Assembly: GCA_965219085.1 (NCBI GenBank)
Contig: OZ244720.1
Span: 2,496,001 to 2,560,000 of the forward strand
Length of the DNA stretch: 64,000 nucleotides
From: Dehalococcoidia bacterium
GTDB lineage: Bacteria > Chloroflexota > Dehalococcoidia > UBA2979
Direction of reading: 5' to 3'
The translations under genes and the position numbers were made by a program. A model generated the notes under the pieces. The model had not been told where the DNA came from, did not search any database, and saw nothing but the letters and a program-made list of their open reading frames with translations. Of the stretch, positions 38,645-59,420 are shown in pieces; the first letter of the stretch is position 1; each line of letters begins with the position of its first letter.

Positions 38645-39461
38645 GTCAGCCTCCCAGGCTAGCGGCATCCGCGTGGAGACCGAGGTCGCGTCGGCGCCGG
38701 CGAGCAATGAGCAGGGCTCGTTGCCTCCGCCGCCAGCCGCGCGACCGGGTCGCCATGCCGTTCATGATTAGATATACGCGCCTGAGGCGGGGATGGTTTC
38801 CCTGACCCGCGGCCTCGCGAGTACCGATCGGCGGCATCGCCGTCGCACATCCGCTCACCGTGGGGGGTCCGGAGCGCAGGAGGGCGGCGAGTACGCGTCG
38901 CGCAGCTTGTCGAATCGGGCACTGACGCAGGCGCCGGCTCACCGGAGATCCGACGGGACCCACTGCGCTCCCCAGCACTCAATGTCACCCGACACCCACA
39001 CGCCGCAGGTGTGAACCGCACCGGTGCTCACCGAGCGGAACTTCCCCGGAGGCGCGTCTGCCTGGCCGAACCGGTTGTCTCCCCAGCAGACGACCTCGCC
39101 CGAATCGCGTACCGCACAGCTATGCCAAAGTAACGTGCTCACCGAGACGAATCTCCCGGGAGGCGCGTCCGTCAAGTTGGATGGCTCGGCGCCCCAACAG
39201 GCGAGCTCACCCGAATCCCGGACAGCACATGTGTGGGCCGCCCCCGCGCTGACGGAGAGGTACGTCCCCGGAGGTACGTGCGTTAGGCTGGATTCTCCCC
39301 AGCAGAGGATCCCACCCGACCCCGACTCGAGCACGGCGCACGAGTGCCGCTCCCCCGCGCTCACCGAGCGGTATTTCCACCTCCCCTGCGGCGCGTTCGC
39401 CTGGCCCCAATCGACCACCCTGATCAAGGAGGTAGACGTGCCCGACTCCTGTCGCGCGCCC

Positions 39462-40827
39462 GGTCACGTCCCTGCAAGTGGTGTAACAGTGCACCATCCT
39501 GATCATTTGCTAGCTGGCGGTCTGCAGTAGCACCTCCTCGCCTGAGGCGACCTCGGCCACGGCCGCCGGCAGCGGCTGCAGCATCGTCATGTAGCGCCGC
39601 CCCTCCGCCCACTCGTCGTGCTGCTCGGCGAGCACGGCGCCGACCAGCCGCACGACGGCGGCACGGTTGGGGAAGATGCCGACCACGTTGGTGCGCCGCC
39701 GGATCTCCTTGTTGAGGCGTTCCAGCGGGTTGTTCGACCAGACCTGCCGCCAGTAGACGACCGGGAAGGCCGTAAACGCCAGGATCTCCGGCCCGGCGTC
39801 GGCGAGCAGCGCCGCGGCCTCGGGGAAGCGCTCGGCGAGCTGCTCCACCACGCGGGCGTGTTGGGCCTGCACCTCGGCCGCCGAGGACTGCTCGTAGATC
39901 GTCCGCACCGTCGTCGCCACCAGCTTCTCGGCGCTCTTCGGCACCCGGGTCAGCAGGTTGCGCATGAAGTGCGTGCGGCAGCGCTGCCAGGAGGCGCCGG
40001 CGAAGACCGTCGCGATCGCCTCCCTGAGGCCCTGGTGCGCGTCCGAGGTGACGAGCTCGACGCCGGACAGGCCGCGCGCCACGAGCCCGCGCAGGAAGCT
40101 CAGCCAGAACGCCCCGTCCTCGGAGGTGCCGACGTCGATGCCCAGCAGCTCGCGCTTGCCGGAGGCGTTGACGGCGGTGGCGACGACCACGGCCACCTGC
40201 ACGACGCGGCCCTCCTCGCGCACGAGCTGGGTGAGCGCGTCGAGCCAGAGGTAGCGGTAGGGGCCCGAGTCGAGGGGCCGCTCGAGGAAGCTCGAGACGA
40301 CCTCGTCGAGTTCAGCGCAGATGCGCGAGACCTGGCTCTTGGAGATGCCGTCGCAGCCGAGCGAGCGCACGAGGTCGTCGACGCGACGGGTCGAGACGCC
40401 CTCGACGTAGGCCTGCGTGACCACGGAGACCAGGGCGCGCTCCGAGCGCCGCCGCGGCTCGATCAGCGAGGGGAAGTAGCTGCCCTCGCGCAGCTTCGGG
40501 ATGCCCAGTTCGATCGTGCCCACACGCGTGTCCCAGCGCCGCGGCCGGTAGCCGTTGCGCCGGGTCAGGCGCGTCTCGCTGCGCTCGCCGTGGGCGGCGC
40601 CGATCTGCGCCGAGACCTCGGCGTCCATCACCGCCTGGGCGAGCACCGCGACCGCCTCGCGCAGAAAGTCGAGGTCCGCTCCGTCCGCCTGCTTGCGCAG
40701 CAGTTCCAACAAGTCCACGCTCTCCTTGACCACAGTCGTCCTCCTCCACGTGACTGTTTCCTGTGTGAAGGATGGCGCGGTGGTCTCCTACGTCCACCTC
40801 TGTGACACCACTTCCTGGGACGCTACC
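39462..40827 (-). mobile_element. IS256-family insertion sequence
   Basis: 28-bp terminal inverted repeats GGTCACGTCCCTGCAAGTGGTGTAACAG and GGTAGCGTCCCAGGAAGTGGTGTCACAG (23/28); no target duplication. Confidence 0.92.
39510..40733 (-). CDS. IS256-family transposase
   Basis: RNGYR, IPKLREGSYFP, WLDA, SDAHQGL, WQRCRTHF, ERLNKEIRRR. Confidence 0.97.
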   Translation of the reverse strand: MVKESVDLLELLRKQADGADLDFLREAVAVLAQAVMDAEVSAQIGAAHGERSETRLTRRNGYRPRRWDTRVGTIELGIPKLREGSYFPSLIEPRRRSERALVSVVTQAYVEGVSTRRVDDLVRSLGCDGISKSQVSRICAELDEVVSSFLERPLDSGPYRYLWLDALTQLVREEGRVVQVAVVVATAVNASGKRELLGIDVGTSEDGAFWLSFLRGLVARGLSGVELVTSDAHQGLREAIATVFAGASWQRCRTHFMRNLLTRVPKSAEKLVATTVRTIYEQSSAAEVQAQHARVVEQLAERFPEAAALLADAGPEILAFTAFPVVYWRQVWSNNPLERLNKEIRRRTNVVGIFPNRAAVVRLVGAVLAEQHDEWAEGRRYMTMLQPLPAAVAEVASGEEVLLQTAS

Positions 40828-42117
40828 TGCTCGCGCGGGGCATTCAACAGGGAGCCGTAGTCAGACGCCCCCCAGCAGACCACCGAACCGGACTCATGGA
40901 TCGCGCATGTGAACTGTGAGCCCGCACTCACCGCGCTGTACCGTCCCGGCGGTGCCTGGGCCTCGCCGACGTCGTCTGCGCCCCAGCAGGCGATCTCGCC
41001 CGACTCGCGTACTGCGCACGCATGCGACTCGCCTGCGCCGACCGAGCGGAACGTCCCGCCGGGGGCGTCCAGCTCGCCCTTCCTGCGGCCTCCCCAGCAA
41101 ACCAGCTCCGCCGACTCGCGAATCGCGCACGTGAACCCATCGCCCGCGCTGACCAAGCGGTACTTACCGGGGGTGCGGTCGCCTCACCCCTGTCGTTCCT
41201 GCCCCAGCAGTCGATCTCGCCAGACTCCCGTATTGCACAGGTGTGGCTGTAGCCAGCACTCACGGACCGGTATGTGCGCACGAACGCACGATGCGCCTCA
41301 TTCGAAGTGTCCCCCCAGCAGGAAACTGAGCCCGCCTCGCGTACCGCGCACGTGTGAGTACCCCCCGCGCTCACCGAGCGGAACTTCCCCGAAGGCGCGC
41401 TGGTCAAGCCATAATTCTCATTCCCCCAGCAGCGAACGGCGCCCGATTCGTCGTGCACGGCGCAGGCATGACCACCCCCCGCGCTGACGGACCGGTAGCT
41501 ACCCAGGGGGGTGTCCGCTTCAAGCATGTACTCGTTGTCTCCCCAGCACCTGAGCTCACTCGACGCTCTGACAGCGCATGCGAATCCGCGCCCCGCACTG
41601 AGCTGCACCGCCGGGTCCGACGGCGGAGGGCCGGACGGGGTGGCGCGAGGTTCGCGAGTGGTAACCGGTGTGCCCGAGGGTGCCTGTACGGAAGTCTGGT
41701 CCTGCGGGCCCGCGCAGCCGGCGACAACAGCCGCTGCGACTACCAGTAGAGCCGCGCCCAACACCGCCGGCCACGTCGCCATGTCGCGGATGATAGATAT
41801 ACGCTCCGATCGCCGGGATGGTTTCCCCACCGAGAGCATCGATGGTGGGGATCGGCGATATTGCAGTCGGACAGCCGCCAGCCGGGGATGGGAGAGGCCG
41901 CAGGCCACCCCGATAACGCTCGCACGCCATCCCGGAGCGTCGCGCGGGACCATCGTGGAGCCGCGCGCAGTTGCGCTTGGGGTCCAGGCCGTATCCCGAA
42001 GTCGCTGGAGGCTGGCTGGCCAAGGAAGACTGTACTGCGAACTTTCGAGCTGGCGGTGTCACTGTAGGTTCGGTGGGCCAGACTCTGCGGGGCCCGCTGC
42101 GCCCAGCCTGCGTTCGA

Positions 42118-42954
42118 CTACAGCATAAGTGTCGTGATCGCGCCGCCGGCACGGGTTCGCCGTACGCCGTTGATCATCTCTGACACCGCGACGGGGCAGA
42201 GCCTCGCCGGTCCTTGGCGTTGGGGCGGAGGTGGCACCGCGCGGACGTCGGCAGCGCAGCAGTCCTTGAAGCGGCGACCGCTCTCGCACGGGCAAGCCTC
42301 GCGTGGCCTCACCTTGAGTCGCTGCATCGCCCGCATCTCGTTCACGTACTCCCTCATGCCGGCCCGGCCGTGACTGTATTCTCCCCAGAGTTCGGCTCTC
42401 GCAGCCTGCAATCCGAATGCGTCGACGAACGACAAGCGATAGAAGAAGGGAATGACCAAGTCGTGAATGAACCGGTCGATTCGCAGGTGGGCGTCCAGAG
42501 CAAGCCTAATGCTCAGGCAGCACGTCTCGTCCTCGTAGAAATGCAGATCGGCGAGAGTAGCGCCTTCCTTGCGAGCGATTGCGGCGCGCCGCCCCCCGAT
42601 CTCCCTGACGCTCGGCCAAGGGGGGGAGTTGCCTGATTCGGGCTCAGGGTATTCGAAGGGGTTCAGGTCTGCGGCTGGCGGCCACTGTATCTGGAACGGA
42701 TCAGGGAAAGAGGGCGCTGGTGTTTGGGGCAGCAAGCGTATCTCGACATCAAACACGTCGGCGATGCAGATTCGGGACGATCCGTTTCCGTCCCCACCTC
42801 CCGACATGTCGCAGTCGACGATCAAGTCTCCGTCCGCCTTGTCGTAGCACGCTTGGAAATCCAGCGCCCCGACAATCGTCATGGAGCTAGCGTCGAAGGT
42901 GAGGTTGGGGTAGTGGTCGCGGAGCCAGGCGACGTCGGCCTTTGACATCTTCAT
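42118..42954 (-). CDS. prokaryotic E2-like protein with C-terminal SEC-C Zn motif
   Basis: WPSVREIGGR...DLHFYEDETCCL, PFFY, WGEYSHG..G, CPCESGRRFKDCC. Confidence 0.7.
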   Translation of the reverse strand: MKMSKADVAWLRDHYPNLTFDASSMTIVGALDFQACYDKADGDLIVDCDMSGGGDGNGSSRICIADVFDVEIRLLPQTPAPSFPDPFQIQWPPAADLNPFEYPEPESGNSPPWPSVREIGGRRAAIARKEGATLADLHFYEDETCCLSIRLALDAHLRIDRFIHDLVIPFFYRLSFVDAFGLQAARAELWGEYSHGRAGMREYVNEMRAMQRLKVRPREACPCESGRRFKDCCAADVRAVPPPPQRQGPARLCPVAVSEMINGVRRTRAGGAITTLML

Positions 42955-44081
42955 CTAGCGTACGGCTTTCTCGGCTTGACCACCGTGGGCGCCGACACCT
43001 CAGTGCGGCTAGGTTCACCCCCCGTCCATAGCCTGACTCCGAGGCGATCAACGACTACTACGACCGGCTTTGGCGACTGGCGTGTGGGATGTTGCATCGT
43101 CACCACGAACTTGCCACGATGTTTAGCGCTGACCGCCCCATAATACGCCGCCGCCTGGCGGTGGGGTGGCTGGTCGGTGTCACTGTCCGGGATCGGGTCG
43201 CTCGTAGCGACGGCGATGCTGCGCGTTGCTCCCTGCTGCTCGAACAGCCAAGCCACCTCCGGAACAGGCTCGGTTACGCGCTTCCCCTTCTTGGGCCCGA
43301 GCGAGAGGTACGAGCAGTGGTGCGGGAGTTTGAACACGTCCCATTCGAGGCGGTGCTCGTTGCCGTGCATCCTCGTCACCGTCACGACGCGAGTCCAAAT
43401 CTCGTGGGGGACGTCGCTGCCGAGCATCAACCTCGAGTCGCGCCCGGCCTCGGTGAACGTGGACTGCAGCACGATGGACTCGGAGTTTCGGTCGACGAGC
43501 TTCCCGTCCTCGCGGTCTGCGAAGGGCGAGTGCGCGAAGAACTCGACGTGGTGCACATCCTTCTTGAAGCTGGGGACGAGCTGTCCAGCGTCGGTGATCA
43601 GGTGCGCGCGCGACTCGATCGTGAGCTTGTGCTCGTCGAGCCACTCCTTGAGCGCCTCCGGCCGGGAGAAGACCCGTACCCCCGCGCCCCGTTCCAAGCG
43701 ATAGCGCGCCTCGGCTTGGACAACGCGCCCCTCGTCACTCAGGGCACCCTTGCTCTCCGTGATAGCCGCGGCGGGCACCCACAGGTCCGAGATCTTTATC
43801 CGGCCGCGTCCCTGGTACTTCTGGGCGTGCTCGAGAACGAAGAAGTCCGATACGCCCTGGATGTGATCTTGATCCAAGTGCGTGAGGGCCAGCACGTCCA
43901 CATGGTCGCGGCCCAGCTCGTCCAGCCGCTTGCGGATCGCCCGAGGGAGATCGATTCGGCGATCGTTCGGATCGTCTGCGTCGGCCATGGCCGCGTAGTC
44001 GAACAGCAGAACCGCCCCTGCGGACGTCTCAACGAGGCACGTGTCGGCGTTGCCCAGCGGGAAGAATGTGAGCTTGTGCAT
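42951..44081 (-). CDS. ComEC/Rec2-type metallo-beta-lactamase-fold hydrolase
   Basis: FFPLGNAD, THLDQDH, LGSD, KLPHHCS, QPPH; ATG at 44081. Confidence 0.88.
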   Translation of the reverse strand: MHKLTFFPLGNADTCLVETSAGAVLLFDYAAMADADDPNDRRIDLPRAIRKRLDELGRDHVDVLALTHLDQDHIQGVSDFFVLEHAQKYQGRGRIKISDLWVPAAAITESKGALSDEGRVVQAEARYRLERGAGVRVFSRPEALKEWLDEHKLTIESRAHLITDAGQLVPSFKKDVHHVEFFAHSPFADREDGKLVDRNSESIVLQSTFTEAGRDSRLMLGSDVPHEIWTRVVTVTRMHGNEHRLEWDVFKLPHHCSYLSLGPKKGKRVTEPVPEVAWLFEQQGATRSIAVATSDPIPDSDTDQPPHRQAAAYYGAVSAKHRGKFVVTMQHPTRQSPKPVVVVVDRLGVRLWTGGEPSRTEVSAPTVVKPRKPYAR

Positions 44082-44171
44082 GAGGGGATCTCCTCTGGTC
44101 CCGGCTGGCCATGGGTCGCCGTCGAGGCACCCATGAGCCATGCTTTAGGTGAACATGTACAAGACCACGCG

Positions 44172-44190
44172 TTACAGCGGTAGACTGTAA
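44172..44190. promoter_or_regulatory. palindromic operator in the divergent promoter region
   Basis: TTACAG-N7-CTGTAA in a relatively AT-rich spacer between the MBL gene and the higB-like gene. Confidence 0.55.
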
Positions 44191-44234
44191 ATCCTGAACG
44201 CTAGTAGTATCAGCTATGAGGGTGAGAGACGCAA

Positions 44235-44525
44235 GTGGACATTCGCTTCGCCGACGAGAATCTCGCGCGGTGTTTCCGGGAGGAGATGCACGCCACCGCG
44301 TGCTGGGGGCTGGATGTGGCGCAGCAGTACGTCCACGTGGTGAACTTCCTCACCTGCATCGAAGGGGCGGGGGACGTGAGCAAGTTCGCGTTCCTGCGGG
44401 CCGAGACCCGGAATCACTCCGGGCCGACGCGCTGGATCGTTCCGCTGGCTGATGGCTGGCATGTTGCTCTCGACGTCGCAGAGGGTGGGCGGGCCCTTAT
44501 CGTTGCAGAGGTGGTGACACAGTGA
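44235..44525 (+). CDS. HigB/RelE-like protein, divergent
   Basis: MDIRFADENL N-terminus, 96 aa, GTGA overlap with the higA-like gene. Confidence 0.6.
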   Translation: MDIRFADENLARCFREEMHATACWGLDVAQQYVHVVNFLTCIEGAGDVSKFAFLRAETRNHSGPTRWIVPLADGWHVALDVAEGGRALIVAEVVTQ

Positions 44526-45619
44526 CCGATTCCACGGAAGCAAGCTCGATCGGCCGAGCCATCGCGCCAGGAACCTACTTGCGCGAGGAACTAGCCGAGC
44601 GCCATATGAGCCAGACCGAGCTCGCACGCCGGATGGGACGGCCCATTCAGGCAATAAACGCGGTCGTGAACGGCAAGAAGGCGCTCACCGAGGTGACGGC
44701 TCTCGAGTTGGAACGAGTCTTGGGCACGCCGGCGCAGGTCTGGGTGAATCTCGAGGCACGGTACCGGCTGGCGCTCGCCCGCGCCTTTGAGGATTCGTCG
44801 CTACGGGACGAGTTGGATTGGTTGAACTACTTTCCGTTGGGCCAGATGGAGCGCCGCGGCTGGATTCCGGCTGCTACGCAGCCACTAGATCGATTGCGGG
44901 CCCTCTTGGAGTTCTTCGGCGTCGCGTCCTTCTCGAATTGGGACGCTGAGCAGCAAGAGGCTCTAGGTTTCCGTGTTACCGGGAACGCGGCAATCGATAC
45001 AGGGGCACTTGCGGCTTGGGTACGCAGAGGTGAAGCGAACGGCATCGCTCTCGAGACGGAAGACTACGACGAAGCGCGCTTCCGCGAGGCGATCGCCGAA
45101 GCACGTGCCCTCACGATGCGCCCGCCGCGTGAGGCTTGGACAGAGCTGAAGGAGATGTGCGCACGAGCGGGCGTAGCAGCGGTAGTTGTGCGTGAGTTCC
45201 CCAAGATCGGTGCCAATGGCGTCGCTCGGTGGATCAACCCACGGAAGGCCCTGATTCAACTGAACCTTCGTTACCGGTGGGCGGACATCTTCTGGTTTAC
45301 GTTCTTCCATGAAGCGGCCCACGTGCTGATGCACGAACCCCGGCGCGTCTTCGTCGAACTGGAGGGCAACCCTCGGAGAAGTCCGCGGGAGGAGGAGGCG
45401 AATCGCCTCGCGGAGGAGTTCCTGATCCCGGTGGACGATTGGGAAGAGTTCGTGCTCCGGTCGAGGTTCGATGCTCTGAGCATCAGGGCCGTCGCCTCGG
45501 ACCTTGGTATCGATCCAGGGATCGTGGTGGGCCGCCTTCAGCACAGGGGCTTGGTTCCATGGGGCTCGAAGCTCAATTCGCTTCGGAGCCGCCTGGAGTG
45601 GGCCGAGGCGGATGCCTGA
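44522..45619 (+). CDS. HigA-type XRE HTH fused to an ImmA/IrrE metallopeptidase
   Basis: PGTYLREEL..MSQTELARRMG, W.NLE..Y, FWFTFFHEAAH, EEEANR, GIVVGRLQH. Confidence 0.92.
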   Translation: MTDSTEASSIGRAIAPGTYLREELAERHMSQTELARRMGRPIQAINAVVNGKKALTEVTALELERVLGTPAQVWVNLEARYRLALARAFEDSSLRDELDWLNYFPLGQMERRGWIPAATQPLDRLRALLEFFGVASFSNWDAEQQEALGFRVTGNAAIDTGALAAWVRRGEANGIALETEDYDEARFREAIAEARALTMRPPREAWTELKEMCARAGVAAVVVREFPKIGANGVARWINPRKALIQLNLRYRWADIFWFTFFHEAAHVLMHEPRRVFVELEGNPRRSPREEEANRLAEEFLIPVDDWEEFVLRSRFDALSIRAVASDLGIDPGIVVGRLQHRGLVPWGSKLNSLRSRLEWAEADA

Positions 45620-45738
45620 TCTTTTGAAGCTCGGAACGCGAGTTCGGCGATCTTCATGTGACCAGACACCTGCGCCGAGCCCTTTGCTGTTCCGATAACG
45701 GCTGGAGGGCTCCCGTTCGCTGCTGGTCACCGAGGGTG

Positions 45739-46215
45739 TCAGGATTCATCTCCATCGCCGAAGAGGGCTGCGACTCTTCGGTCAAGCCAGGCGAGCACTC
45801 GCGTCAAGCTGAAGCCTGCGGCAAACGCAATTGCAACGAAGGGCAAGGCTGATTGCTCGTCCATCGGGCCCGGAACCCGCACAGGACTCAGTGCTACGCG
45901 TGCGGCTACGTACCCGATTAGCCCCAAGACGCTGCCTGCGATCGGGCGGAGCACGTACCACCATGTCCATGAGGGATCATATGTGAATCGTGGGCTGTCG
46001 GCCCGCTGTGGTCCTACGGACCAATAGAAGCCTCGAAGGGCGTACAACGTGGCGCCAAGCCCACCAGCCGCCGCGCAGTGGAACCAGACGCTCACCGCTG
46101 TTTCGAGGGGGGCTTGTGCTGGCCACCACCCGAGGGCGACAGCTCCCGCTATGTAGAGGTAGCCGGCGATCGCGACGGTAAACCAAGCGCCTGTCGCCAC
46201 CTTCAGCCAGAACAT
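45739..46215 (-). CDS. four-TM membrane protein of unknown function
   Basis: AGGLG, WYVLRPIAGSVLG, AFAAGFS. Confidence 0.7.
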   Translation of the reverse strand: MFWLKVATGAWFTVAIAGYLYIAGAVALGWWPAQAPLETAVSVWFHCAAAGGLGATLYALRGFYWSVGPQRADSPRFTYDPSWTWWYVLRPIAGSVLGLIGYVAARVALSPVRVPGPMDEQSALPFVAIAFAAGFSLTRVLAWLDRRVAALFGDGDES

Positions 46216-47078
46216 CGGGACCCCTCAAAGGCTCGTGTGTAAGGACTCAACTGGCGAGGTCGACTCTAGCGTCTCACGCACTCGGCTCGCCTGCCGATCC
46301 CGCGACTGCGTCGTACACCTCGCGGGCGGGCACCTCCGAGGCTGTCATCCGGAGTCCGCGTCGCCGAGGAACCGCGTGACGATGGCGTCATTCTCCCCTA
46401 TTGCCTGCCGACTGGTGGGGCCGTGTCCTTGTCGGCGTCGCCCGCGCCGACCTCGGTCGTGGTGGTGACGAAGGCTGACCCCTCCTCGTCAGCTTTGAGC
46501 CACCAGACTGGACAGAATCGAGAACCTCCATCCTGACATTCCGGCTGGCGATGTAGCCTGCTGTAGGCATCGTCCACCCATTGGAGCCCGACACCGACTA
46601 GCAACGGCACAAGCTCAGGCGGTCGGACGTCTGCCGTTCGTTCATGCCTAGCGGCTGTTACATGCGTTCGAGCTCGTCGAGGATGTCCTGAATCACGTCC
46701 GCCGCCTCGAGCGCTTCTCGTACTTGGGCTTGTGCCAGTGCGGCCCAGAATGTGGCTGCCCACTGCTCGTAGAGATGCTCGAAGTCGTAGATGCCGTCGA
46801 CGTGGACGGACTCGATGGTGGTGCCGAACGAGTCCGTCACGCTCACAGCGATCGCAGGCCCGCCTCGAGCGCCGGGCCCCAGGACGAGCGCCACGAGAGC
46901 GTCTCGAAACTCGGCGAACAGAGGTGACTTTGGGTAGCTCGGGTAGCCGCCCGGACCAGGATCCTCCACCGTCTCCGACGCCTCACCAGGATTCGCTCAC
47001 TGACCTGACCCCTTGAAACGGGACCACCGTTGATGAGAGTCCTTTGGCCCATGAAAGTGGGCAGAGGAGGACATCACG

Positions 47079-49717: not shown

Positions 49718-51832
49718 CTACCGTGCTGTCGCTGCGCGGCGCGCTCGCAAATCATCGAGAAACTCCGACCCCGGAGCCACCCCCGTGACCAGGAGGTGGT
49801 CGCGCGCGCGGGTGCAGGCGACGTAGAGGAGATGGCGCTCGGTGTTGTAGACGTCCTCGAGGTCGGCGGTGTCGGCGACAGCCTCGATGCGGGACTGGAG
49901 CGGGATGACCTCGTCGTCGCAGGCGGCTACCACGACGGCGCGGAACTCGAGGCCCTTGGCGAGGTGCATCGTGCCGACGGCGGCGTGGCCCAGCTCGGCC
50001 TCGGCGCCGCCCTCGAGTCCGCCGGCGGTGAGGCCGGACGCTTCGATCGCAGCGCGGGCGCGCTCCAGCTCTGTCTCTGACCGCACGAAGACACCGATCT
50101 CCTCCAGCGGCACGCCCTCCCCCGCCCGCGCCTCGATCCATTCGGCGATGGTCACGGCTTCCTCCTCGACCGTGTCGAGGACAGCGACGGTCGGCTCGGG
50201 GCCGTTGAAGGCAGAGACTGTGCCGCGGCGGATATCTGTGTTGCCGTCCACGTCGCTCATCTCGGGCGGGAGCAGACGGTCAGCCTGGCGGCGGATCTGG
50301 TGCGAGGTGCGGTAGTTGATGCGGAGCGTGCTCGACCGGCCGCGCACGTCGACGCCGAGCGAGAGCCACGAGAACGGCGTCTGGAAGATGCGCTGCCCGA
50401 GGTCGCCAGCGAAGAAGAGGCCGTTCTCGCGCTCGCCCCGCAGGGCCGCGAGGAAGCGGAGTTGCGGGACGCCGATGTCCTGGCTCTCGTCCACGACGAT
50501 GAAGTCGTAGGGACTCGCGCCGGCCCCAGCCGCGCGCTCGGTCGCCGCGGCGAACACGCTGGCGAGGGTGCGGAGGTCGCGCTCGGCGAGTTCGGAGCGG
50601 ACGCGCTCGAAGATCGACCAAAGCAGGACGCGCTGGTTCTCGCCGAGGCGCGTCTTGCGGCCGAGGCGGGCGACGTCGCGATACGCCTCCCACGTCGCGA
50701 GCTGCCAGGCATCGACCACTTCGCGCCACTCGGCCTCGAGGAACCGCTCGCTGAAGCGATGCTCCTCGGCAGCCGCCGACGCCTCATGGAGCAGCGTCCG
50801 CAGCGTCGGTTCGTCCACCAGCCGTGCCGGGCCGAACGCCGCTTCGAATAGCTCGACGCCGACCTGGTCGATGGCGTTCACGGTGATGCGCTCGCGAGCG
50901 GCGTCGCCCCCCACGAGTCGGCCAAGCTTCACGCGGAGTGCGGCCGCGAGCGTGTCGCTGAAGGTGGTGAGCAGCACGCGGGCTTCGGGATGCGTGCGCG
51001 CGAGGTGTACCGCGCGATGAAGCGCGACGACGGTCTTGCCCGTGCCGGCGGACCCGGCGACGCGCGCCGGCCCACTGTAGTCCCGCTCGACGATGGCGCG
51101 CTGGGCCGGGTGAAGGAACACCGTCCACTGCTCCCAGGGGTAGTCGAGGGCGCGCTCCAACTCGGCGGCGTTGTCCATCAGCCGGAACCGGCGCTGCGCG
51201 TCGGGGTGCTCGAAGGGGTCCGCGCCCGCGTCCGCGTGCACCGGCTGCGCCGGAGTGCCGCCGGTGGCCAGTTCCAGCAGCGCCTCCGCGGCCTCGGCCG
51301 GTAGGTGGTCAGCAAGCTCGAAGAGTGTGTCCTCGGTTGCGGCGCGGGCGTCGGCGAGCCATTCGAGCGGCACCCCGTAGCCGAGCAGCGCATCGTCCGT
51401 TACGTGATCGAAGAGGCGCGGCCTGGACCCGAACGTCGCCGGAGCGGGCTCCGCGACGGACTGCTCCGCCGGGACGTAGACCGGGACCTCAACCTCGCGG
51501 ACGGTCTCGCGCACCTCGACGAGTTGGGCGGCGCCGGTGCGTGGGTGGCGCTCGAGAACTCGTCGCTCAGCCCAGCGGTAAGCGGCGTCGTGGTGGTCGG
51601 CGTAGCAGAGCATCAAGCTCGCGTCGGTGCGATGCACGATCAGGCGCAGGTCGCGGCTGATACGTGCGGACCAGAAGCTCTTGTCCTTGCTGCGGTCGAT
51701 GCGATGGAGTTGGATGCCGGGGTTCGCCGGGTTGAGCTGCAGGTCGAAGGCCGTGGTCTTCGCCGCCTTCTGCTCGTCCGCGGTCAATCGGTCGAGGCTG
51801 GCCGTGAACGTGTCGGCTATCCGGAACTCCAT
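49718..51832 (-). CDS. SF1 UvrD-like helicase with an N-terminal RelE-like domain
   Basis: FWSARISRDLRLIVH, Walker A GSAGTGKT, VDESQD, INYRT, KGLEF, YVACTRAR; ATG at 51832. Confidence 0.9.
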   Translation of the reverse strand: MEFRIADTFTASLDRLTADEQKAAKTTAFDLQLNPANPGIQLHRIDRSKDKSFWSARISRDLRLIVHRTDASLMLCYADHHDAAYRWAERRVLERHPRTGAAQLVEVRETVREVEVPVYVPAEQSVAEPAPATFGSRPRLFDHVTDDALLGYGVPLEWLADARAATEDTLFELADHLPAEAAEALLELATGGTPAQPVHADAGADPFEHPDAQRRFRLMDNAAELERALDYPWEQWTVFLHPAQRAIVERDYSGPARVAGSAGTGKTVVALHRAVHLARTHPEARVLLTTFSDTLAAALRVKLGRLVGGDAARERITVNAIDQVGVELFEAAFGPARLVDEPTLRTLLHEASAAAEEHRFSERFLEAEWREVVDAWQLATWEAYRDVARLGRKTRLGENQRVLLWSIFERVRSELAERDLRTLASVFAAATERAAGAGASPYDFIVVDESQDIGVPQLRFLAALRGERENGLFFAGDLGQRIFQTPFSWLSLGVDVRGRSSTLRINYRTSHQIRRQADRLLPPEMSDVDGNTDIRRGTVSAFNGPEPTVAVLDTVEEEAVTIAEWIEARAGEGVPLEEIGVFVRSETELERARAAIEASGLTAGGLEGGAEAELGHAAVGTMHLAKGLEFRAVVVAACDDEVIPLQSRIEAVADTADLEDVYNTERHLLYVACTRARDHLLVTGVAPGSEFLDDLRARRAATAR

Positions 51833-52589
51833 CAGCAGCCTCTGCGGACGTAGTTCACTGAACCAGACAGCGAATCGATGGACTCGGTTGGACGAGTGCC
51901 CCGGACATACACGCAGCGGTAGCCCGGCCAAGCCTGCTTGAGGGCATCAGCGCCATCAATTCGTACGCTACCAGAAGCGCCACCAAGGTCTGCCTTCTTG
52001 TAACGTGGCTGATGGATGACCCGTCCCTTCCGCTGCCCGTTCCTGTCGGATGCGGAGGATCAGGGTGTGAATCGCAGATCGTTCAGTCCTCTCGCTGCAC
52101 CACCGCGCAAGAGTGAGCGCCAGTTCTCGCGAGTCGCCATCCAGAGTGGTCGACACGAAGTATGCCTGGAGGGCTACGGCGCCCATCGCGCCGCTGAGCT
52201 GGGTGTACGTCATTTCTTCGGGCAAGTAGGCGGGAGGCACTGTCCCGGTCTCAACTCCTCCGAATATCCCTGTGAGCTCGTTGAGGTAGAAGTGCGCCAG
52301 TTGTACGGAAAGCGGTGCGTCGACGGGATACGGCCGCTGTCGGATGGTCTCGTAGAGGGCTGTACCCAACTCACGACGCGCGTCGCCAGAGGACAGTGGG
52401 ATGTCCATCGCACGCAGGAAGGCGGGAAGAAAGCCAAGGGAGAGTTGCAATGGGTCATGGTCGAGGTCAGTCATAAAGCCCCTCTCGGGTCTGCCCGGTC
52501 GTTCTCAACGCAAGCAAGGCGGTGCGCTCGTCCGCAGTCAGCCGGGCGAGGCTGGCCGTGAACGTGTCGGCGATGCGGAACTCCATCAG
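51772..52589. repeat. 64-bp imperfect direct repeat of the helicase 5' end (51772-51835 and 52526-52589)
   Basis: 58/64 identical by hand alignment; both encode MEFRIADTFTASL.RLTADE. Confidence 0.9.
51968..52474 (-). CDS. hypothetical protein ending in RPWWRFW
   Basis: 168 aa, GAGGGG RBS, lower GC than its flanks. Confidence 0.7.
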   Translation of the reverse strand: MTDLDHDPLQLSLGFLPAFLRAMDIPLSSGDARRELGTALYETIRQRPYPVDAPLSVQLAHFYLNELTGIFGGVETGTVPPAYLPEEMTYTQLSGAMGAVALQAYFVSTTLDGDSRELALTLARWCSERTERSAIHTLILRIRQERAAEGTGHPSATLQEGRPWWRFW

Positions 52590-55453
52590 TCGACTCGGAA
52601 CACCTTCATCACTTCGTCGCCGAGGTGGTTGATGACCTTCACCGCGATGCGGCCCGACTCCGGCTTGTCGAAGGGGCGCGACGTGTCGCTGTGCAGCGTC
52701 TCCCACGCCTCCTGGTTGATCTCGGCCTTGAGCGTGGTCTTGAGCGCCTTGTACGGGTCGTTCTGGCCGAGGAAGTAGGCGTGACGGACGAAGAAGCTCT
52801 CCTGGTTGTAGTCGGTGTCGATGAACCAGCAGGCGATGCCGTCCGGGCCATCGCTGCGCACCTCGCCCGTGTTCGGGTGGAACACGTCGACGCCATTCAC
52901 GCGCAGCTTGACCTGCCCGGGCTCGGCATCGTCGTCGCCCGACGCGTCGAGGATGTCGATGTCCGGCTCGCCGAAGATGACGAAGAGGTTGCCCTTGCCG
53001 GTGTTCTTCAGATCGCCGGCCATGTGCAGGTCGGCGTTCATCCGCGCCTTGAGGACCGGGACACGTCCGAGCTTGTTGAACTCGGTGGCGTGCGCCTCGT
53101 AGTTGAAGGCGCAGGCGATAAGCACGTCGAAGCCTGCGTCGGCGGCCTCGCGGGCGGCCTCGACGAGGTCGGGGCGCGAGACGGTGCCGAACTCCGGCCC
53201 GATGAAGATGCCGGCGCGCTTCTCGGGGCCCGTGCCGTTGGACCCGGAGCCGCCATCGGCGTAGCGGCCCTCGGCGCAGATCATCTCGCCCGGCCACGGG
53301 GAGACCGAGGAGAACTCGATGCGGTCTTCCTTGTGCGCCTGCTGCACGCCGGCGGTGCTGAGGTGAGCGAGGATCGTGGAACCGAAGTCCTGTGGCTCGC
53401 CGTACGAGCCCGGCGTCTCTGCCACGCCGTCGATGAGCTCATCGTCCTCGTCGAGGCCGAGGACGCGGTGGGGTGAGAGGCTCTCGACCGTGAACGGCCC
53501 GGCCACGCGCACCTTGCGGTTGTCGGTGTACGGCTTGTCGTAGAGATACTCGAAGTCCGCCTTTGCGGCGATGGAGGCGTCGATCTCGCGCTGGCGCGCA
53601 ATGCGCTGCTGCCACCACTGCTCGTGCAGCGCCCGCGCATCGGCCGGCCACCCGTCCTCAGCCTCACGCGGGATCTCCCACTCTTCCCACGACTCGTCGA
53701 GCACTGCATTCAACTCGTCCCGGAGGGGCTCGAGTTTCGTCTGGAACTGCTCCCAGATGACGTCGAGCTCAGCGTTGCTGGCAATGTCGCGAAGCTGGAT
53801 GTGGGGAACGCGTTCATAAACGAAGCCTTGACGAACGTTGTCGAACGATGGAGCGTCGGACGGCTGCCCGCGTGTGATCTCTGCCTCTTTCTGTTTTCCG
53901 TCGGTGCCATCTGTTAGCAAGTAGTAGGGATATCGGGCACCCATGATGCGTACTCGCGCAAGAGCGAGTGCCACACGAGAAGTGTCGACGGTGATCCAGC
54001 GGCGCCCCCACTGCTCTGCGACGTATGCGGTGGTCCCGCTGCCACAGGTAGGATCGAGAACCAGGTCGCCCGGGTCGGTGGTCATGAGTAGACATCGCTG
54101 GACGACCTTCGCAGAGGTCTCGACTACATACCGCTTCTCCGAGGCGAACCCCGCAATCCCCGTATCGCTCCAGACGTTATCTTCATTGAACGCCCTAAAA
54201 TCATCGAAGTAACGAACGTAGTAGAGGCCGGAACGGGTCGCGCTCAGGCGATCTGCCTTCTTGAGCCTCGCCATCCCGGTGGCATTGGTCTTCCATCGGA
54301 CGCGATCCGATGGCTTATAGGTCTTCCCGCGGAAGGCGACCGGGAACCATGACGCGGCCCCTTCGCCCTTCGCCCGACCGACACTCTGGCTTGTGAGGTT
54401 GTCCACCCGAAACACAAGCGCATGTTCGGGCAGCCCGGAGGGATCCGTGAGTTCCGCACGCGTGAGGGGGCGATCAGTGCCATCCGGGAAGCGAGCACGC
54501 TTGTAGGCCGTACCGCCGACGCCCCCCACTTCTTTCGCTTGGAGCGGCTGGCGATACTTCAGGCGCTCACGGTCCTTTGCATAGAAGAGCAGGACATCAT
54601 ATGTGCCTGCCAAGAATTCGGAAGTTGCGCTGGCAGTCTTCGAGAAGACTATCTGCGATACGAAGTTGTGCGAACCGAACACCTCATCCAAGAGAGCCCG
54701 AAGAAGGTGGGAGTTCTCTTCCCCGATCTGCACGAACAGCGAACCTGAATCGTGGAGGAGGTCGCGAGCGATCTCAAGGCGATCGCGCAAGTACGACAGG
54801 TACGAGTGGATGCCGTCGCGCCACGTGTCGCGAAACGCTTTCACCTGTTCCGGCTCGCGCGTGATGTGTTCCGTGTTGCCGTCACGCACGTCGCGGCTCG
54901 CCGTCGACCACTGGAAGTTCGAGTTGAACTTGATGCCGTACGGCGGGTCGATGTAGATGCACTGCACCTTACCGCGCAGACCCTCGCGCTCCGCCAGCGA
55001 GGCCATCACCTGCAGGCTGTCGCCGAGAATCATGCGGTTCGACCAGTTGGCGTCGTGCTCGTAGAAGTCCGTGCGGTCGGCGCCCTCCGGCAGCCCGTTG
55101 AAGTCGGCGAACAGGTCCGCTTGGTACCCGTTCTCGGCGATCGCATCGTCCTTCGCCGCCTGCTCACTCCTCCGCCGCAGGTCGTCGATGAGTACCTTGG
55201 GGTGCACCTTCTCCTGGATGTAGAGCGGCGGCGCCTGCACGACGAGGTCGGCGAGGTCCTGCTCGTCCTTGCCGCGCCAGACGAGCTGCGGGTCGAGGTC
55301 GCGGTTGCGGCGCTCGTATGCCACCTCGATGGGGCTGCGGTCGTCGTCCTCCAGCGCCGCGCTGTACTCGGCGGTGGGGATGTTGGTCCGCTTCGCGTCG
55401 TCGTGGACGATCGTCTCGACCTGCTTGCGGCGGCTCTTCTTCCGACGTGGCAT
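52586..55453 (-). CDS. mod: type III restriction-modification methyltransferase (Mod)
   Basis: NRMILGDSL, YIDPPYG, LDPTCGSGTT, AVKVINHLGDE. Confidence 0.92.
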   Translation of the reverse strand: MPRRKKSRRKQVETIVHDDAKRTNIPTAEYSAALEDDDRSPIEVAYERRNRDLDPQLVWRGKDEQDLADLVVQAPPLYIQEKVHPKVLIDDLRRRSEQAAKDDAIAENGYQADLFADFNGLPEGADRTDFYEHDANWSNRMILGDSLQVMASLAEREGLRGKVQCIYIDPPYGIKFNSNFQWSTASRDVRDGNTEHITREPEQVKAFRDTWRDGIHSYLSYLRDRLEIARDLLHDSGSLFVQIGEENSHLLRALLDEVFGSHNFVSQIVFSKTASATSEFLAGTYDVLLFYAKDRERLKYRQPLQAKEVGGVGGTAYKRARFPDGTDRPLTRAELTDPSGLPEHALVFRVDNLTSQSVGRAKGEGAASWFPVAFRGKTYKPSDRVRWKTNATGMARLKKADRLSATRSGLYYVRYFDDFRAFNEDNVWSDTGIAGFASEKRYVVETSAKVVQRCLLMTTDPGDLVLDPTCGSGTTAYVAEQWGRRWITVDTSRVALALARVRIMGARYPYYLLTDGTDGKQKEAEITRGQPSDAPSFDNVRQGFVYERVPHIQLRDIASNAELDVIWEQFQTKLEPLRDELNAVLDESWEEWEIPREAEDGWPADARALHEQWWQQRIARQREIDASIAAKADFEYLYDKPYTDNRKVRVAGPFTVESLSPHRVLGLDEDDELIDGVAETPGSYGEPQDFGSTILAHLSTAGVQQAHKEDRIEFSSVSPWPGEMICAEGRYADGGSGSNGTGPEKRAGIFIGPEFGTVSRPDLVEAAREAADAGFDVLIACAFNYEAHATEFNKLGRVPVLKARMNADLHMAGDLKNTGKGNLFVIFGEPDIDILDASGDDDAEPGQVKLRVNGVDVFHPNTGEVRSDGPDGIACWFIDTDYNQESFFVRHAYFLGQNDPYKALKTTLKAEINQEAWETLHSDTSRPFDKPESGRIAVKVINHLGDEVMKVFRVD

Positions 55454-55457: not shown

Positions 55458-55814
55458 TCAGTCCTGTCGCTCGGCTTGCTGCAGCAAGTCGCGTAGTTGG
55501 GGGATCAGGTCGGGGACGCTGCGGGTCACCATCACCCAGATCAGATTGTCATCGACACCGAGGTAGACGTGCATGATCACGTTCCTCGCGCCGACGATGC
55601 TGCGCCAGGGGATGTCTGGGTGCGAGTCACGGACGGACTCGGGGATGTGGGTGGCCGCCTCACCGAGGAGTGCGAGGTTGTGCAGGGTCGCGTAGTAGGT
55701 GCGCGCGTCCGCCGCGAAAGCAGCCTGATCCATCGCGGCGGTGAACTCAGTGACCCGCTCACAGGCTTCCAGCATGTCGCGCACGTAGAGATCCCACGGC
55801 CGGTCCTCAGACAC
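55458..55814 (-). CDS. HepT-like HEPN ribonuclease toxin (DUF86)
   Basis: LGEAA, IPWR, RNVIMHVY (Rx4H plus Tyr). Confidence 0.92.
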   Translation of the reverse strand: MSEDRPWDLYVRDMLEACERVTEFTAAMDQAAFAADARTYYATLHNLALLGEAATHIPESVRDSHPDIPWRSIVGARNVIMHVYLGVDDNLIWVMVTRSVPDLIPQLRDLLQQAERQD

Positions 55815-56112
55815 GAACCGCCTCGGCCTCGACGTACGGGCGCAACTCGGAGCGCAGCGCCTTGTCCGTGACGAGGTCGACGGGCCGGCCCAGCAGGTCC
55901 TCGATGTAGAACTGGACGCCGAAGTAGCAGTCCGGGTCGGTCGGTCGGTCGAAGCTCACGAGGATGTCGACGTCGCTATCGGGCCCGGCCTCGTCGCGTA
56001 CGGTGGACCCGAATAGGGCGAGATCGACCACGCCGAAGCGCTCGGCCATGGCGAGCTTGTGCTCGCGCAGCAGGGCCAGCACCTCGGTCTTCCTGATCGC
56101 CTGTTCAACCAT
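55807..56112 (-). CDS. MNT minimal nucleotidyltransferase antitoxin
   Basis: LFGSTVRDEAGPDSDVDILV (GSx10DxD), VDLVT. Confidence 0.92.
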   Translation of the reverse strand: MVEQAIRKTEVLALLREHKLAMAERFGVVDLALFGSTVRDEAGPDSDVDILVSFDRPTDPDCYFGVQFYIEDLLGRPVDLVTDKALRSELRPYVEAEAVRV

Positions 56113-59100: not shown

Positions 59101-59214
59101 CCTCTGCTCGGCGATCTGGTTCGTCGGCTGGCGCTCGTCGTCGAGCTCCCAGTGCCGCGCCGGGTACTCGTACGGCGAGTTGAGGACTGGCGATTCGAAG
59201 AAGCGGTCGGTCAT
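56146..59214 (-). CDS. res: type III restriction endonuclease Res subunit
   Basis: ATGAGKT, NDEAHH, LSATP, MLTEGWD, EQVIGRALR, YIPDF...VEIKG; ATG at 59214. Confidence 0.92.
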   Translation of the reverse strand: MTDRFFESPVLNSPYEYPARHWELDDERQPTNQIAEQRRPAAYITPVPQPRRQRGRAQQQRMILDEGEGLSTEDQEYDPTSTINVLRREVDRWRSSPESDWNVTPETARLLKHWRRHDFSDIRPFFCQVEAVETVIWLTEVAPQSRRREVIEIRERLEWANEQSNPDLARLGLKLATGAGKTTVMAMLIAWQTVNAVRHPSSRNFTRGFLVVTPGITIRDRLRVLQPNDPDSYYESRELVPRDMLRDLEQARIVITNYHAFKLRETLDLSRGGRSLLQGRGPEIQSIETEGQMLQRVMPGLMGMRSIMAFNDEAHHCYREKPGETDEGKLTGDDRKEAEKNREAARLWISGLEAVNRKLRLRRVLDLSATPFFLRGSGYAEGTLFPWTMSDFSLIDAIECGIVKLPRVPVADNIPGGDMPMFRELWEHIRRKMPRKGRGRAGELDPLSIPVELQTALEALYGHYAEVFKLWDDADTEAPPCFIVVCNNTATSKLVYDYISGFHRENEDGSTTLENGRLELFRNYDEHGNPYPRPYTLLIDSQQLESGEGLDRNFRQAAAEEIERFRREQVQRTGDRAAADKISEQDLLREVMNTVGKPGQLGGSIRCVVSVSMLTEGWDTNTVTHVLGVRAFGTQLLCEQVIGRALRRQSYDLNEDGRFDVEYADVLGIPFDFTAKPVVAKPTPPRETVQVRAVSPERDDLEIRFPRVQGYRVELPSERLEAEFTDDSTFELTPEVIGPSITRNEGIIGEGVDLNLVHTGDMRPSTLQFHLARRLVETKWRDPGGEPKLHLFGQLKRITRQWLEQHLVCTGGTYPAQLMYQSLADTACERITQGINRALLGERPIKAVLDPYNASGSTRHVRFTTSKRTRWRTDPRRSHVNYVVCDSDWEAEFCRIAERHPRVRAYVKNQGLGLEVPYQWGSEARRYIPDFIVLVDDGRGEDDLLHLVVEIKGYRREDAKEKKSTMESYWVPGVNHLGAYGRWAFAEFTDVWAMQHELAAEIDAHFDKMIESAAGTAPVVAG

Positions 59215-59420
59215 GGATCGCAGTCTATCAGCGGCTGCGAGTACTCGGCGTCTTGCCGCCGCCAGACGCCTCTCCATGAGCAGCATCGGGCCGGCGGTGC
59301 GGGCGTTTCTCACGGAGTTCGGAGTCCCGTCGGATCGCTTTGGCGCGACTCCGAAAGATGCTCAGCAGCAGGAGCCGCCTGAGTCGCAAGGCAACCAGTG
59401 AGCCATCCTCGCGGGCTCGG

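Follow-up and report, generated by a model that had tools for sequence, protein, structure and literature searches.

In type II CBASS, Cap2 and Cap3 supply an E1-E2 fusion and a JAB protein; Cap2 requires E1 adenylation, and Cap3 undoes the conjugation. A related arrangement is the 6A-MBL system (Iyer et al. 2006, Table 1, row 6a), which NCBIfam represents by NF058524 for its metallo-beta-lactamase-fold (MBL) enzyme and NF058523 for cap2_3, the E2-E1-JAB protein. The canonical system is reported as anti-phage in its NCBIfam name, in a review (PMC13276650) and in a methods description.

The Serratia marcescens CdnG-E2 pair is an E2-CBASS, or short type II CBASS (Yan et al. preprint; Xiao et al. 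2026). According to two reports (bioRxiv 10.1101/2022.05.25.493364; PMC12948482), its E2 (SmE2) trims the residue after G406, forms a thioester at C101 and an isopeptide at K159, accepts the G406A substitution and cleaves off C-terminal fusions. A defence-associated MBL has been described in a preprint (bioRxiv 10.1101/2025.11.14.688446) as a Zn-dependent dsDNA nuclease.

Here we analyse a gene pair that combines elements of these systems, found in a 64,000-nucleotide stretch of a Dehalococcoidia genome (the window). We propose, with a probability of roughly 0.65, that a module swap has produced here a shortened 6A-MBL anti-phage system with an E2 as its only ubiquitin-type enzyme. The pair looks like a natural module swap because the hydrolase bears the tail that this E2 family normally meets on a cyclase.

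The hydrolase and its E2-like partner

The features discussed below are located as follows.

42118..42954, minus strand: gene for the 278-aa E2-like enzyme; C-terminal zinc knuckle of SEC-C type (ORF, PADLOC, Pfam)
42951..44081, minus strand: gene for the 6A-MBL-family hydrolase with MBL fold, 376 aa counted from M21 (ORF search, NF058524)
42954..42974, minus strand: codons for the MBL C-terminal tail P-R-K-P-Y-A-R, the same 7-mer as on CD-NTases; putative E2 recognition or conjugation tag
42185..46269, no strand: 4.1-kb block shared at 82% nucleotide identity with positions 4679-8767 of contig L036 (blastn)
44172..44190, no strand: palindrome TTACAG-N7-CTGTAA, lying between the divergently oriented MBL gene and orf96; candidate operator
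44235..44525, plus strand: orf96, 96 aa, a cassette member that overlaps the HTH-M78 gene at its start, where a HigB-like toxin would be encoded (ORF)
44522..45619, plus strand: fusion of a Xre/HigA-type HTH with an M78 (ImmA/IrrE-like) peptidase, 365 aa (Pfam HTH_3, Peptidase_M78)
45739..46215, minus strand: predicted membrane protein, 158 aa, last gene of the shared cassette (ORF)

The MBL open reading frame spans 42951..44141 on the minus strand (396 aa) and contains THLDQDH and KLPHHCS. Although the frame stays open upstream of 44081 to 44141, the true start is most likely M21 at 44081, because homologues align from query residue 21 and GAGGAG lies 8 nt before this ATG. The protein matches the NCBIfam 6A-MBL_enzyme model NF058524 at 386.9 bits (cut-off 220) over model positions 1-345 of 346. 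Its metal motifs are intact in conserved alignment columns (H68-x-D70-x-D72-H73, H184, D223 and H254-H255, numbered from M21). In the predicted structure (pLDDT 80.5, pTM 0.84) the tail, residues 356-376, is disordered and lies away from the core. For this model Foldseek ranks first the ComEC beta-lactamase-like domain 9ic4 (E 9.6e-12; TM-score 0.71 normalised to target length; sequence match E 2.7e-4), and the models of Avs1a match weakly (1e-6 and 2.4e-6) and in the N-terminal motif only. In our proposal the MBL protein is most likely a metal-dependent nuclease and the toxic effector.

The partner ORF contains WPSVREIGGR, DLHFYEDETCCL, WGEYSHG and CPCESGRRFKDCC. The two genes overlap by ATGA: the MBL gene ends in GCT AGA TGA, and the ATG of the E2 gene lies within AGATGA. 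This overlap between a ComEC-type MBL gene and the gene for a 278-aa protein, part of the original prediction, was read directly, and the predicted motifs were located in both ORFs. The SEC-C knuckle that had been named is likewise there (Pfam PF02810, 25.2 bits against a cut-off of 20.4, residues 219-234). In PADLOC the protein matches the CBASS 'E2' model PDLC00872 at E 3.8e-18, with matches to E2 models spanning 3.8e-18 to 6e-4. Residues H138, C145, C146 and H195 are invariant across 30 sequences of the family alignment, making H138, C145/C146 and H195 candidate catalytic residues. Two features are specific to the clade of this protein: an insert of about 30 aa at approximately 77-111 and a C-terminal extension at approximately 240-278.

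The expected UBC fold was found by one structural method and not by another. With the E2 model (pLDDT 77.6), the best PDB match in VIA-align is 8hsb_B, the E2 chain of the Serratia CdnG-E2 complex, with 126 residues aligned at 3.3 rmsd and a Z of 8.9, which is only moderately over the background quoted for this method. UFC1 and other E2s follow at Z of about 7. Seventy-two chains reach Z of at least 5, and the best 50 of these 72 are all of E2, UEV or UFC1 type except for one chain of the Fanconi anaemia core complex. The alignment gives an E2 core fold with the putative catalytic Cys in the loop following the His motif. Foldseek returned nothing at E <= 0.001; because this search alone was not significant, the fold assignment rests on VIA-align. 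Against PDB sequences the family profile matched only the SEC-C peptides of SecA and YchJ, with SmE2 absent.

We were able to collect 239 homologues of the E2-like protein, mostly of 205-245 aa and carrying SEC-C. The window protein is 30-42% identical to E2s from patatin - CD-NTase - E2 operons. Among 68 genome loci of the homologues, at least 52 have a CD-NTase-cluster gene directly upstream of the E2 gene, and in 47 a patatin-cluster gene stands beside the CD-NTase (second upstream in 42, directly upstream in 5). A scan of fourteen representatives returned PADLOC Cyclase (1e-95 to 1e-144), SMODS and Patatin. The partner protein is thereby placed in the short type II CBASS family of E2s. Neither tblastn against plasmids with the E2 nor scans of viral contigs with the E2 or with the MBL alignment found a match.

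The enzymes that usually accompany either protein are missing. The host genome is a 3.3-Mb single contig, 92.7% complete, and no SMODS or CD-NTase was found in it. Its best match to cap2_3 (NF058523) reaches 42.6 bits against a cut-off of 320 and lies at 1.468 Mb, about 1 Mb off the window; its sole Prok-JAB is at 1.472 Mb. As positive controls, canonical pairs from two genomes in this phylum scored 343 and 372 bits with the cap2_3 model. The 278-aa protein itself has no match to NF058523 at E <= 1, and the best cap2_3 match in the genome of L036 is 50.4 bits. No cyclic-nucleotide-activated effector such as patatin was found among 22 window ORFs scanned against Pfam (about 36.9-60.7 kb). The absence of E1, JAB and cyclase near the pair had been noted; for cap2_3 and CD-NTase it extends to the 92.7%-complete genome.

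We also considered that the E2 gene could be a remnant of a full E2-E1-JAB gene cut by a nearby IS256. This reading was rejected because the protein has no cap2_3 match, its homologues of 205-245 aa stand alone, and the gene is intact in L036, which lacks that IS.

A shared cassette in an IS-rich island

The shared block joins the pair to three further genes, and its second copy lies on L036, a MAG contig titled Gammaproteobacteria. The block has a G+C content of 0.62-0.66, lower than the surrounding 0.70, and among 98 further genomes from this order none had a close MBL. Compared with L036, orf96 is 91% identical (dN/dS 0.28) and matches no family in Pfam, PADLOC or NCBIfam. The HTH-M78 protein, 82% identical, matches TIGR02607 (HigA) at 52.6 bits against a cut-off of 47.7, PADLOC PD-Lambda-2_B at 3.4e-34 and, weakly, capP at 1.3e-6; it is a candidate regulator or antitoxin. 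The 158-aa membrane protein is 89% identical (dN/dS 0.09) and falls only in unnamed clusters in the Atlas. With 68% identity the E2 has diverged further than any other gene in the cassette. The values of dN/dS are 0.20 for MBL and 0.33 for E2, and those of all five genes lie between 0.09 and 0.33, indicating that the cassette is under purifying selection. Both arms of the palindrome are kept in L036 while the flanking bases vary. A scan of 41900-44400 for sigma-70 promoters and terminators gave nothing exceeding shuffles.

Around the block we found IS256-, IS3- and IS5-type transposases, a UvrD-like helicase, type III Mod and Res and a HepT/MNT pair, so that the predicted island with type III restriction-modification and toxin-antitoxin modules was recovered. 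One IS element interrupts a neighbouring gene.

The clade is narrow, with 5 MBL clusters at 83-100% identity, and the gene pair was inspected directly at two sites, the window and L036; its recurrence may therefore reflect one cassette spreading. Reading frames are intact in every clade member seen. A third case of the pair may be P0004 with P0272, whose longest contigs have an equal length of 199,375.

A cyclase-type tail on the hydrolase

The two MBL proteins end in KPRKPYAR (window) and RPRKPYAR (L036). Exactly PRKPYAR forms the C-terminus of 20 of the 52 CD-NTases adjoining E2 homologues, and the looser tail [KRQ]x[YWFH][AG]x is found on 48 of these 52. Substrates of short-CBASS E2s have a small residue next to last, and here such a residue is present, but on the MBL. 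The ending differs from that of the canonical 6A-MBL enzymes: in 80 metagenome loci, all 79 complete MBLs end in xR[AVFIM]G, whereas the window MBL lacks the canonical xR(A/V/F)G ending, a feature of 6A-MBL derived in this analysis and not taken from the literature. Among the nearest 120 MBL clusters, the E2-type tail occurs in the 5 closest only (83-100% identity), and the other 115 end in RxG.

At canonical loci cap2_3 lies downstream of the MBL gene in all 50 metagenome loci having at least 2.2 kb of downstream sequence, and the window MBL is 48-67% identical to MBLs followed by cap2_3. The original prediction had looked to the neighbourhoods of MBL homologues for recurring E2/SEC-C partners; the pair does recur, in L036, but this E2 stands beside the canonical MBLs at 0 of 80 metagenome loci. 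The family models and the neighbourhood surveys thus agree with the predicted hybrid of a 6A-MBL-type MBL and a lone E2 of short-CBASS type.

A predicted complex of the two proteins scored 0.65, and the best of 3 controls scored 0.00. Of 80 solved complexes 58 attained that mark, as did 2 of 110 mismatched pairs. The prediction used unpaired alignments; its runs share at least 90% of contacts, and the pLDDT of the partner is at least 77. The predicted interface sets MBL residues 365-376 against E2 residues 42-49, 135-141, 146-149, 164-173 and 189-196, and the MBL tail is accordingly modelled as inserted in the E2 catalytic groove. The score could, however, reflect the model's memory of the solved Serratia complex.

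We also found a natural fusion (P0165) in which an MBL 41% identical to that of the window is followed by a linker and an E2/SEC-C domain, with ...SKPWAE... at the junction. This protein represents one cluster only, and a frameshift or faulty gene calling could have given rise to it as an artefact.

The tail, the predicted groove contacts and the fusion together favour the proposed coupling of MBL and E2. PRKPYAR has a single occurrence in the genome, which also yielded no CD-NTase, so the MBL is the only candidate substrate of the E2. The reading in which the E2 serves a cyclase elsewhere in the genome was rejected on the same grounds, the genome showing no CD-NTase and no second tail motif.

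Proposed mechanism and its place among known systems

We propose that an MBL of the 6A-MBL family lost cap2_3 (E2-E1-JAB), and gained a short-CBASS E2/SEC-C protein together with the CD-NTase tail ...PRKPYAR. By the model of the Serratia E2-CdnG pair, the flexible tail of the MBL would enter the catalytic groove of the E2, whose Cys/His protease-like activity would trim the terminal Arg376. The catalytic Cys (C146 or C145) would then form a thioester with Ala375 of the MBL, which would be transferred to a lysine on the E2, on another MBL or on a target. Such conjugation or chaining would govern MBL activity in infection, with activation as the supposed direction, and a putative nuclease so controlled could act in phage defence.

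The five-gene cassette as a whole may instead be the functional unit, with MBL-E2 only a part of it: HTH-M78 and orf96 would regulate expression at the palindrome, much as CapH/CapP do, while the 158-aa membrane protein would confer immunity or act as a further effector. The joint travel of five genes at 82% nucleotide identity, each at dN/dS 0.09-0.33, speaks for this, as do the palindrome conserved in the divergent promoter region and the PD-Lambda-2_B match (3.4e-34), the capP match (1.3e-6) being weak. Yet the three extra genes occur at 0 of 67 CBASS-type E2 loci, bar two weak HTH-only matches, and the HigB/HigA-like pair can be an independent addiction module stabilising the island; since only two cassettes were seen, the linkage may be hitch-hiking, and we consider this reading unlikely. 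We regard it as quite unlikely that the E2 is a processing protease or covalent brake on the MBL tail, which would trim it or hold it in an inactive 1:1 adduct, without target conjugation or chains, until a phage cue frees the MBL. SmE2 is reported to be cysteine-protease-like and to form a stable 1:1 covalent complex, the E2 family shows no K159-like acceptor Lys seven residues past H195, and proteolysis turns on other defence MBLs according to one preprint (bioRxiv 10.1101/2025.11.14.688446). However, the modelled tail is short, disordered and off the core, so that a one-residue trim would be unlikely to gate the active site, and in Serratia the adducts are reported as activating, not inhibiting.

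It is very improbable that the pair is a recent, non-functional product of recombination, in which the cyclase and effector of a CBASS operon were replaced by chance and which is now drifting to loss. The IS-rich island with one IS splitting a neighbouring gene, the small and young clade and the divergence of the E2 (68% identity, dN/dS 0.33) would fit such a history. Against it stand intact frames in all members seen, conserved catalytic and metal-binding residues, dN/dS far below 1, a junction that retains the exact tail and the ATGA overlap, and the independent, distantly related MBL-E2 fusion.

Going beyond the E2-only form of 6A-MBL, we tentatively suggest, at somewhat less than even odds, that the PRKPYA-x tail is a portable address tag by which an E1-independent 'super-E2' captures any effector, here a DNase that would be trimmed, thioester-linked and covalently chained or targeted, as the first non-cyclase substrate. 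If this were true, ubiquitin-free and ATP-free conjugation would be a general switch of immune effectors and not a peculiarity of CBASS cyclases.

With Cap2/Cap3 the pair would share ubiquitin-like transfer of an immune enzyme's own C-terminus; it differs in encoding neither E1 adenylation nor conjugate reversal. It would resemble the protease-activated MBL DNases of Avs and other defence systems (Evans et al. 2025 preprint) in the use of ComEC-related defence MBL effectors under post-translational control by a partner enzyme, but those are reported to undergo two internal cleavages and do not involve a C-terminal tail and an E2.

The resemblance to E2-CBASS lies in the SmE2 fold (Z 8.9, moderately over background), in the substrate-type tail and in the way the E2 gene overlaps its upstream neighbour (ATGA type). 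That neighbour here encodes a hydrolase, and the pair lacks a CD-NTase, a cyclic-nucleotide signal and a separate effector; its E2 clade has in addition the insert of about 30 aa and the C-terminal extension. SmE2 is not detectable by sequence with the window E2 family profile, and any equivalence to its residues H87, C101, H152 and K159 is tentative: the His-to-Cys spacing is 7-8 in the window family against 14 in SmE2, and the Lys at the K159-like position is missing.

The closest described system is 6A-MBL. Full-text searches on 6A-MBL and on Cap2 with metallo-beta-lactamase, covering main texts other than the primary 6A-MBL defence paper, turned up no E2-only pairing; the pairing may thus be new, but the pair is better named a short variant of a known system than a new system. 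Both forms have an equivalog-level MBL in a two-gene operon, MBL first and a ubiquitin-type enzyme second, and the MBL of each carries a flexible C-terminal tail with a small residue at the end. The window pair has no E1, JAB or triple-module protein; its partner is an E2 without cap2_3 match, and its tail is PRKPYAR in place of xR(A/V)G. The same hydrolase family thus occurs in two forms, E2-E1-JAB with an R(A/V)G tail and a lone E2 with PRKPYAR, a natural experiment which suggests that 6A-MBL conjugates its own MBL, as CBASS does its cyclase, that each tail goes with its matching enzyme, the two co-varying, and that the E1-independent chemistry described for a single E2 from Serratia may serve further effectors.

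The gene pair and its two halves

The two genes overlap on the minus strand as the original prediction described, and every motif that it cited was found in their translations; in the sequence, the MBL stop codon and the E2 start codon have ATGA in common.

Open reading frames of the pair
42951-44141, minus strand: MBL, open frame of 396 aa
42118-42954, minus strand: E2/SEC-C protein, 278 aa

Because MBL homologues align from residue 21 of the 396-aa frame, and GAGGAG stands 8 nt 5' of the ATG at this residue, the MBL most likely starts at 44081 and has 376 aa (residues are numbered here from M21).

The MBL matches the NCBIfam equivalog NF058524 ("anti-phage 6A-MBL system MBL-fold protein") with 386.9 bits versus a cut-off of 220, and its metal-binding motifs (H68-x-D70-x-D72-H73, H184, D223, H254-H255) are kept across homologues. 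In its AlphaFold model (pLDDT 80.5, pTM 0.84), residues 356-376 form a disordered tail to the MBL core; the closest solved structure is the ComEC beta-lactamase-like domain 9ic4 (Foldseek, E = 9.6e-12). Since the fold is ComEC-like and one defence MBL, distinct from 6A-MBL, is reported as a Zn-dependent dsDNase (bioRxiv 10.1101/2025.11.14.688446), we infer by analogy that this protein is a nuclease.

The partner is matched by the PADLOC CBASS E2 models (best 3.8e-18) and by Pfam SEC-C; the proposed hybrid is indeed composed of a 6A-MBL equivalog and a member of the short type II CBASS E2 family. The expected UBC fold was recovered by structural comparison of the model (pLDDT 77.6; insert 77-111 disordered), whose nearest structure is 8hsb_B, the E2 chain of Serratia CdnG-E2 (Z 8.9, rmsd 3.3, 126 aligned residues), followed by UFC1 and further E2s at Z ~7, although Foldseek alone gave no significant match. 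Most of the 239 E2 homologues have 205-245 aa with SEC-C. An alignment of 30 out of 120 listed homologues (A1) shows no variation at H138, C145, C146, H195 or the zinc-knuckle cysteines. In a FastTree phylogeny of 46 sequences (every third of the clusters P0001-P0120, plus P0002, P0003, P0005, P0006, the window E2 and the E2 domain of the MBL-E2 fusion P0165), the window E2 groups with P0001-P0006 alone (support 86, stem length 0.59), a clade that shares an insert of ~30 aa and a C-terminal extension.

Genomic neighbours of the MBL and of the E2

In "row 6a" of Iyer et al. (2006, PMC1779556) a triple-module E2-E1-JAB protein stands beside a specialised MBL, and this canonical 6A-MBL is reported as anti-phage in a review (PMC13276650), in the methods of another paper and in the name of the NCBIfam model. 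The partner is modelled by NCBIfam NF058523 ("6A-MBL_cap2_3", hereafter cap2_3), and canonical pairs occur in two genomes of the same phylum (cap2_3 343 and 372 bits). Among the best 80 loci of a metagenome contig scan with the MBL alignment (MBLs 48-63% identical), a cap2_3-like gene follows on the same strand in 50 of the 50 with at least 2.2 kb downstream, and a window-type E2 in 0 of 80; the recurrence anticipated for E2-SEC-C partners beside MBL homologues was found at L036, a locus in a MAG labelled Gammaproteobacteria, but not in this set. As originally claimed, no E1, JAB or cyclase gene lies near the pair: the genome that holds the window, a single contig at 92.7% completeness, has its best cap2_3 match ~1 Mb away at a sub-threshold 42.6 bits, adjoined by the sole Prok-JAB, and a CD-NTase search found none. 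The genome of L036 gave 50.4 bits for cap2_3, counted as absent.

A genome scan with A1 yielded 68 loci, read with a crude ORF caller and blastp clustering. The gene directly upstream of the E2 falls into one single cluster in at least 52 of 68, a lower bound because 15 further loci are truncated, IS-hit or beyond the ORF caller; an MBL takes this slot at L036 only (1/68). A second cluster of 47 proteins adjoins the first: 42 of them lie two genes upstream of the E2 and five immediately upstream. The 14 cluster representatives scanned proved to be either CD-NTases (PADLOC Cyclase 1e-95 to 1e-144, SMODS) or patatin phospholipases; the arrangement patatin - CD-NTase - E2 corresponds to the short type II CBASS (E2-CBASS) operon. 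In the L036-L103 set, this operon with E2/SEC-C spans MAGs labelled Poribacteria, Latescibacterota, Caldilineaceae, Dehalococcoidia, Entotheonella, Binatia, Acidimicrobiales and others, many of them sponge-associated lineages. Some loci (L048, L069, L070) have two E2 copies, and at L086/L087 a truncated 161-aa cyclase gene has an rve-type transposase gene directly upstream.

The C-terminal tail and the predicted complex

The last residues are VVKPRKPYAR in the window MBL and VVRPRKPYAR in the L036 MBL. Of the 52 CD-NTases beside an E2, 48 have a C-terminus that fits [KRQ]x[YWFH][AG]x, and 20 have PRKPYAR as their exact end. A 5.8-billion-protein collection was searched for related MBLs: of the 120 nearest clusters, such a tail is confined to the five closest (83-100% identity); below them identity falls to 67%, and the remaining 115 of 115 end in RxG. 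Within the window's genome, PRKPYAR plus stop occurs once, at the MBL end. Canonical MBLs (L104-L183, P0276-P0390) bear a near-universal C-terminal (A/S)PR(A/V)G, often up to the last residue: 79 of 79 complete MBLs in the best 80 metagenome loci end xR[AVFIM]G, in 35 as the very last residue. This tail (79/79; 115/120 clusters) suggests, by analogy with the cyclase in CBASS, that the canonical MBL is itself the substrate whose C-terminus cap2_3 activates.

In Serratia, the cyclase tail is reported to sit in an E2 pocket; the E2 itself cuts off the residue after Gly406, Gly406 becomes linked to C101 and then K159, C-terminal fusions are cleaved off, and a G406A mutant is tolerated (bioRxiv 10.1101/2022.05.25.493364; PMC12948482). 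By analogy with Gly406 and the residue after it, Ala375 of the MBL would be joined and Arg376 trimmed.

A complex of the MBL with E2 residues 1-245 was predicted with a score of 0.65 (best of three controls 0.00). Among solved complexes, 58 of 80 attained this mark, as did 2 of 110 mismatched pairs. Between runs, at least 90% of contacts agreed, with partner pLDDT of at least 77. The confidently predicted interface places MBL 365-376 against E2 42-49, 135-141, 146-149, 164-173 and 189-196, including the invariant H138, C146, W190, Y193 and H195. Because a similar complex has already been solved, this pass shows likeness to it, and the model's memory of that complex may be its source. We propose, at a probability of about two in three, covalent capture of the MBL tail by the E2 as the means of controlling an MBL effector in phage defence.

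Relatives of the two proteins also occur fused: P0165 (660 aa, one sequence) consists of an MBL part (41% identical), a linker (junction SKPWAE) and a domain of the E2/SEC-C type that is 28% identical across 150 aa (E = 4e-9). Four same-family MBLs (P0132, P0158, P0160, P0191) carry a C-terminal AGS-C fusion (Pfam PF18134, E = 5e-19 to 3e-40). AGS-C, typical of SMODS cyclases, is named for its C-terminal place in cyclases, and MBL-AGS-C is, as read from these architectures, a second one with an MBL in the usual cyclase slot.

The cassette, its island and its proposed origin

Window positions 42185-46269 match L036 4679-8767 with 82% nucleotide identity; the flanks do not match.

Shared block and surrounding island
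42185-46269: shared block (E2, MBL, 96-aa ORF, HTH-M78 protein, 158-aa membrane protein)
44235-45619: 96-aa ORF, overlapping the start of the HigA-type HTH-M78 gene
39510-40733: IS256/Mutator-family transposase (Pfam 9e-133)
49718-51931: UvrD-like helicase, 737 aa (Pfam UvrD-helicase, UvrD_C)
52586-55453 and 56146-59313: type III R-M, Mod and Res

Pairwise dN/dS between the two copies is 0.33 for the E2, 0.20 for the MBL, 0.28 for the 96-aa ORF, 0.14 for HTH-M78 and 0.09 for the membrane protein. G+C is 0.62-0.66 in the block versus ~0.70 around it. A close MBL homologue is missing from all 98 other genomes of this order, of which one holds a relative with 28% identity. The MBL-E2 clade is narrow and probably a single cassette, seen directly in two neighbourhoods (the window and L036).

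The 96-aa ORF has no family match; HTH-M78 combines a HigA-type HTH with an M78 peptidase in one protein (PADLOC PD-Lambda-2_B, 3.4e-34), and the two may form a toxin-antitoxin or regulator module moving with the pair. Between the MBL gene and the 96-aa ORF, which diverge, there is a palindrome, TTACAG-N7-CTGTAA (44172-44190); both its arms are kept in L036 and adjacent bases vary. It is possibly the operator of HTH-M78.

The island setting, earlier cited for an antiphage role, was confirmed: IS elements and defence-type genes surround the cassette, including the type III R-M genes with a HepT/MNT toxin-antitoxin pair (55458-56112) between Mod and Res. RCC1-repeat coding pieces (38939-39427, 40928-41953) flank the IS256/Mutator transposase, which has apparently inserted into a single RCC1-repeat gene and split it (38939-41953). 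The helicase, whose N-terminal ~270 aa have no family match, is positioned between IS elements and the R-M genes.

Full-text searches of the literature on 6A-MBL (supplements and the primary 6A-MBL paper being outside their scope), and on Cap2, JAB or E1-like proteins with metallo-beta-lactamase, returned no description of an E2-only form. The residue equivalence of the window E2 with SmE2, the Serratia enzyme, is putative: the His-to-Cys spacing is 7-8 versus 14, and the K159-like position has no Lys. The simplest history would be recombination within a CBASS cyclase gene, at the end that encodes the tail, so that a 6A-MBL hydrolase came to stand ahead of the E2 gene and the final codons of the cyclase; its outcome would be an E2-only form of 6A-MBL, parallel to E2-only CBASS.
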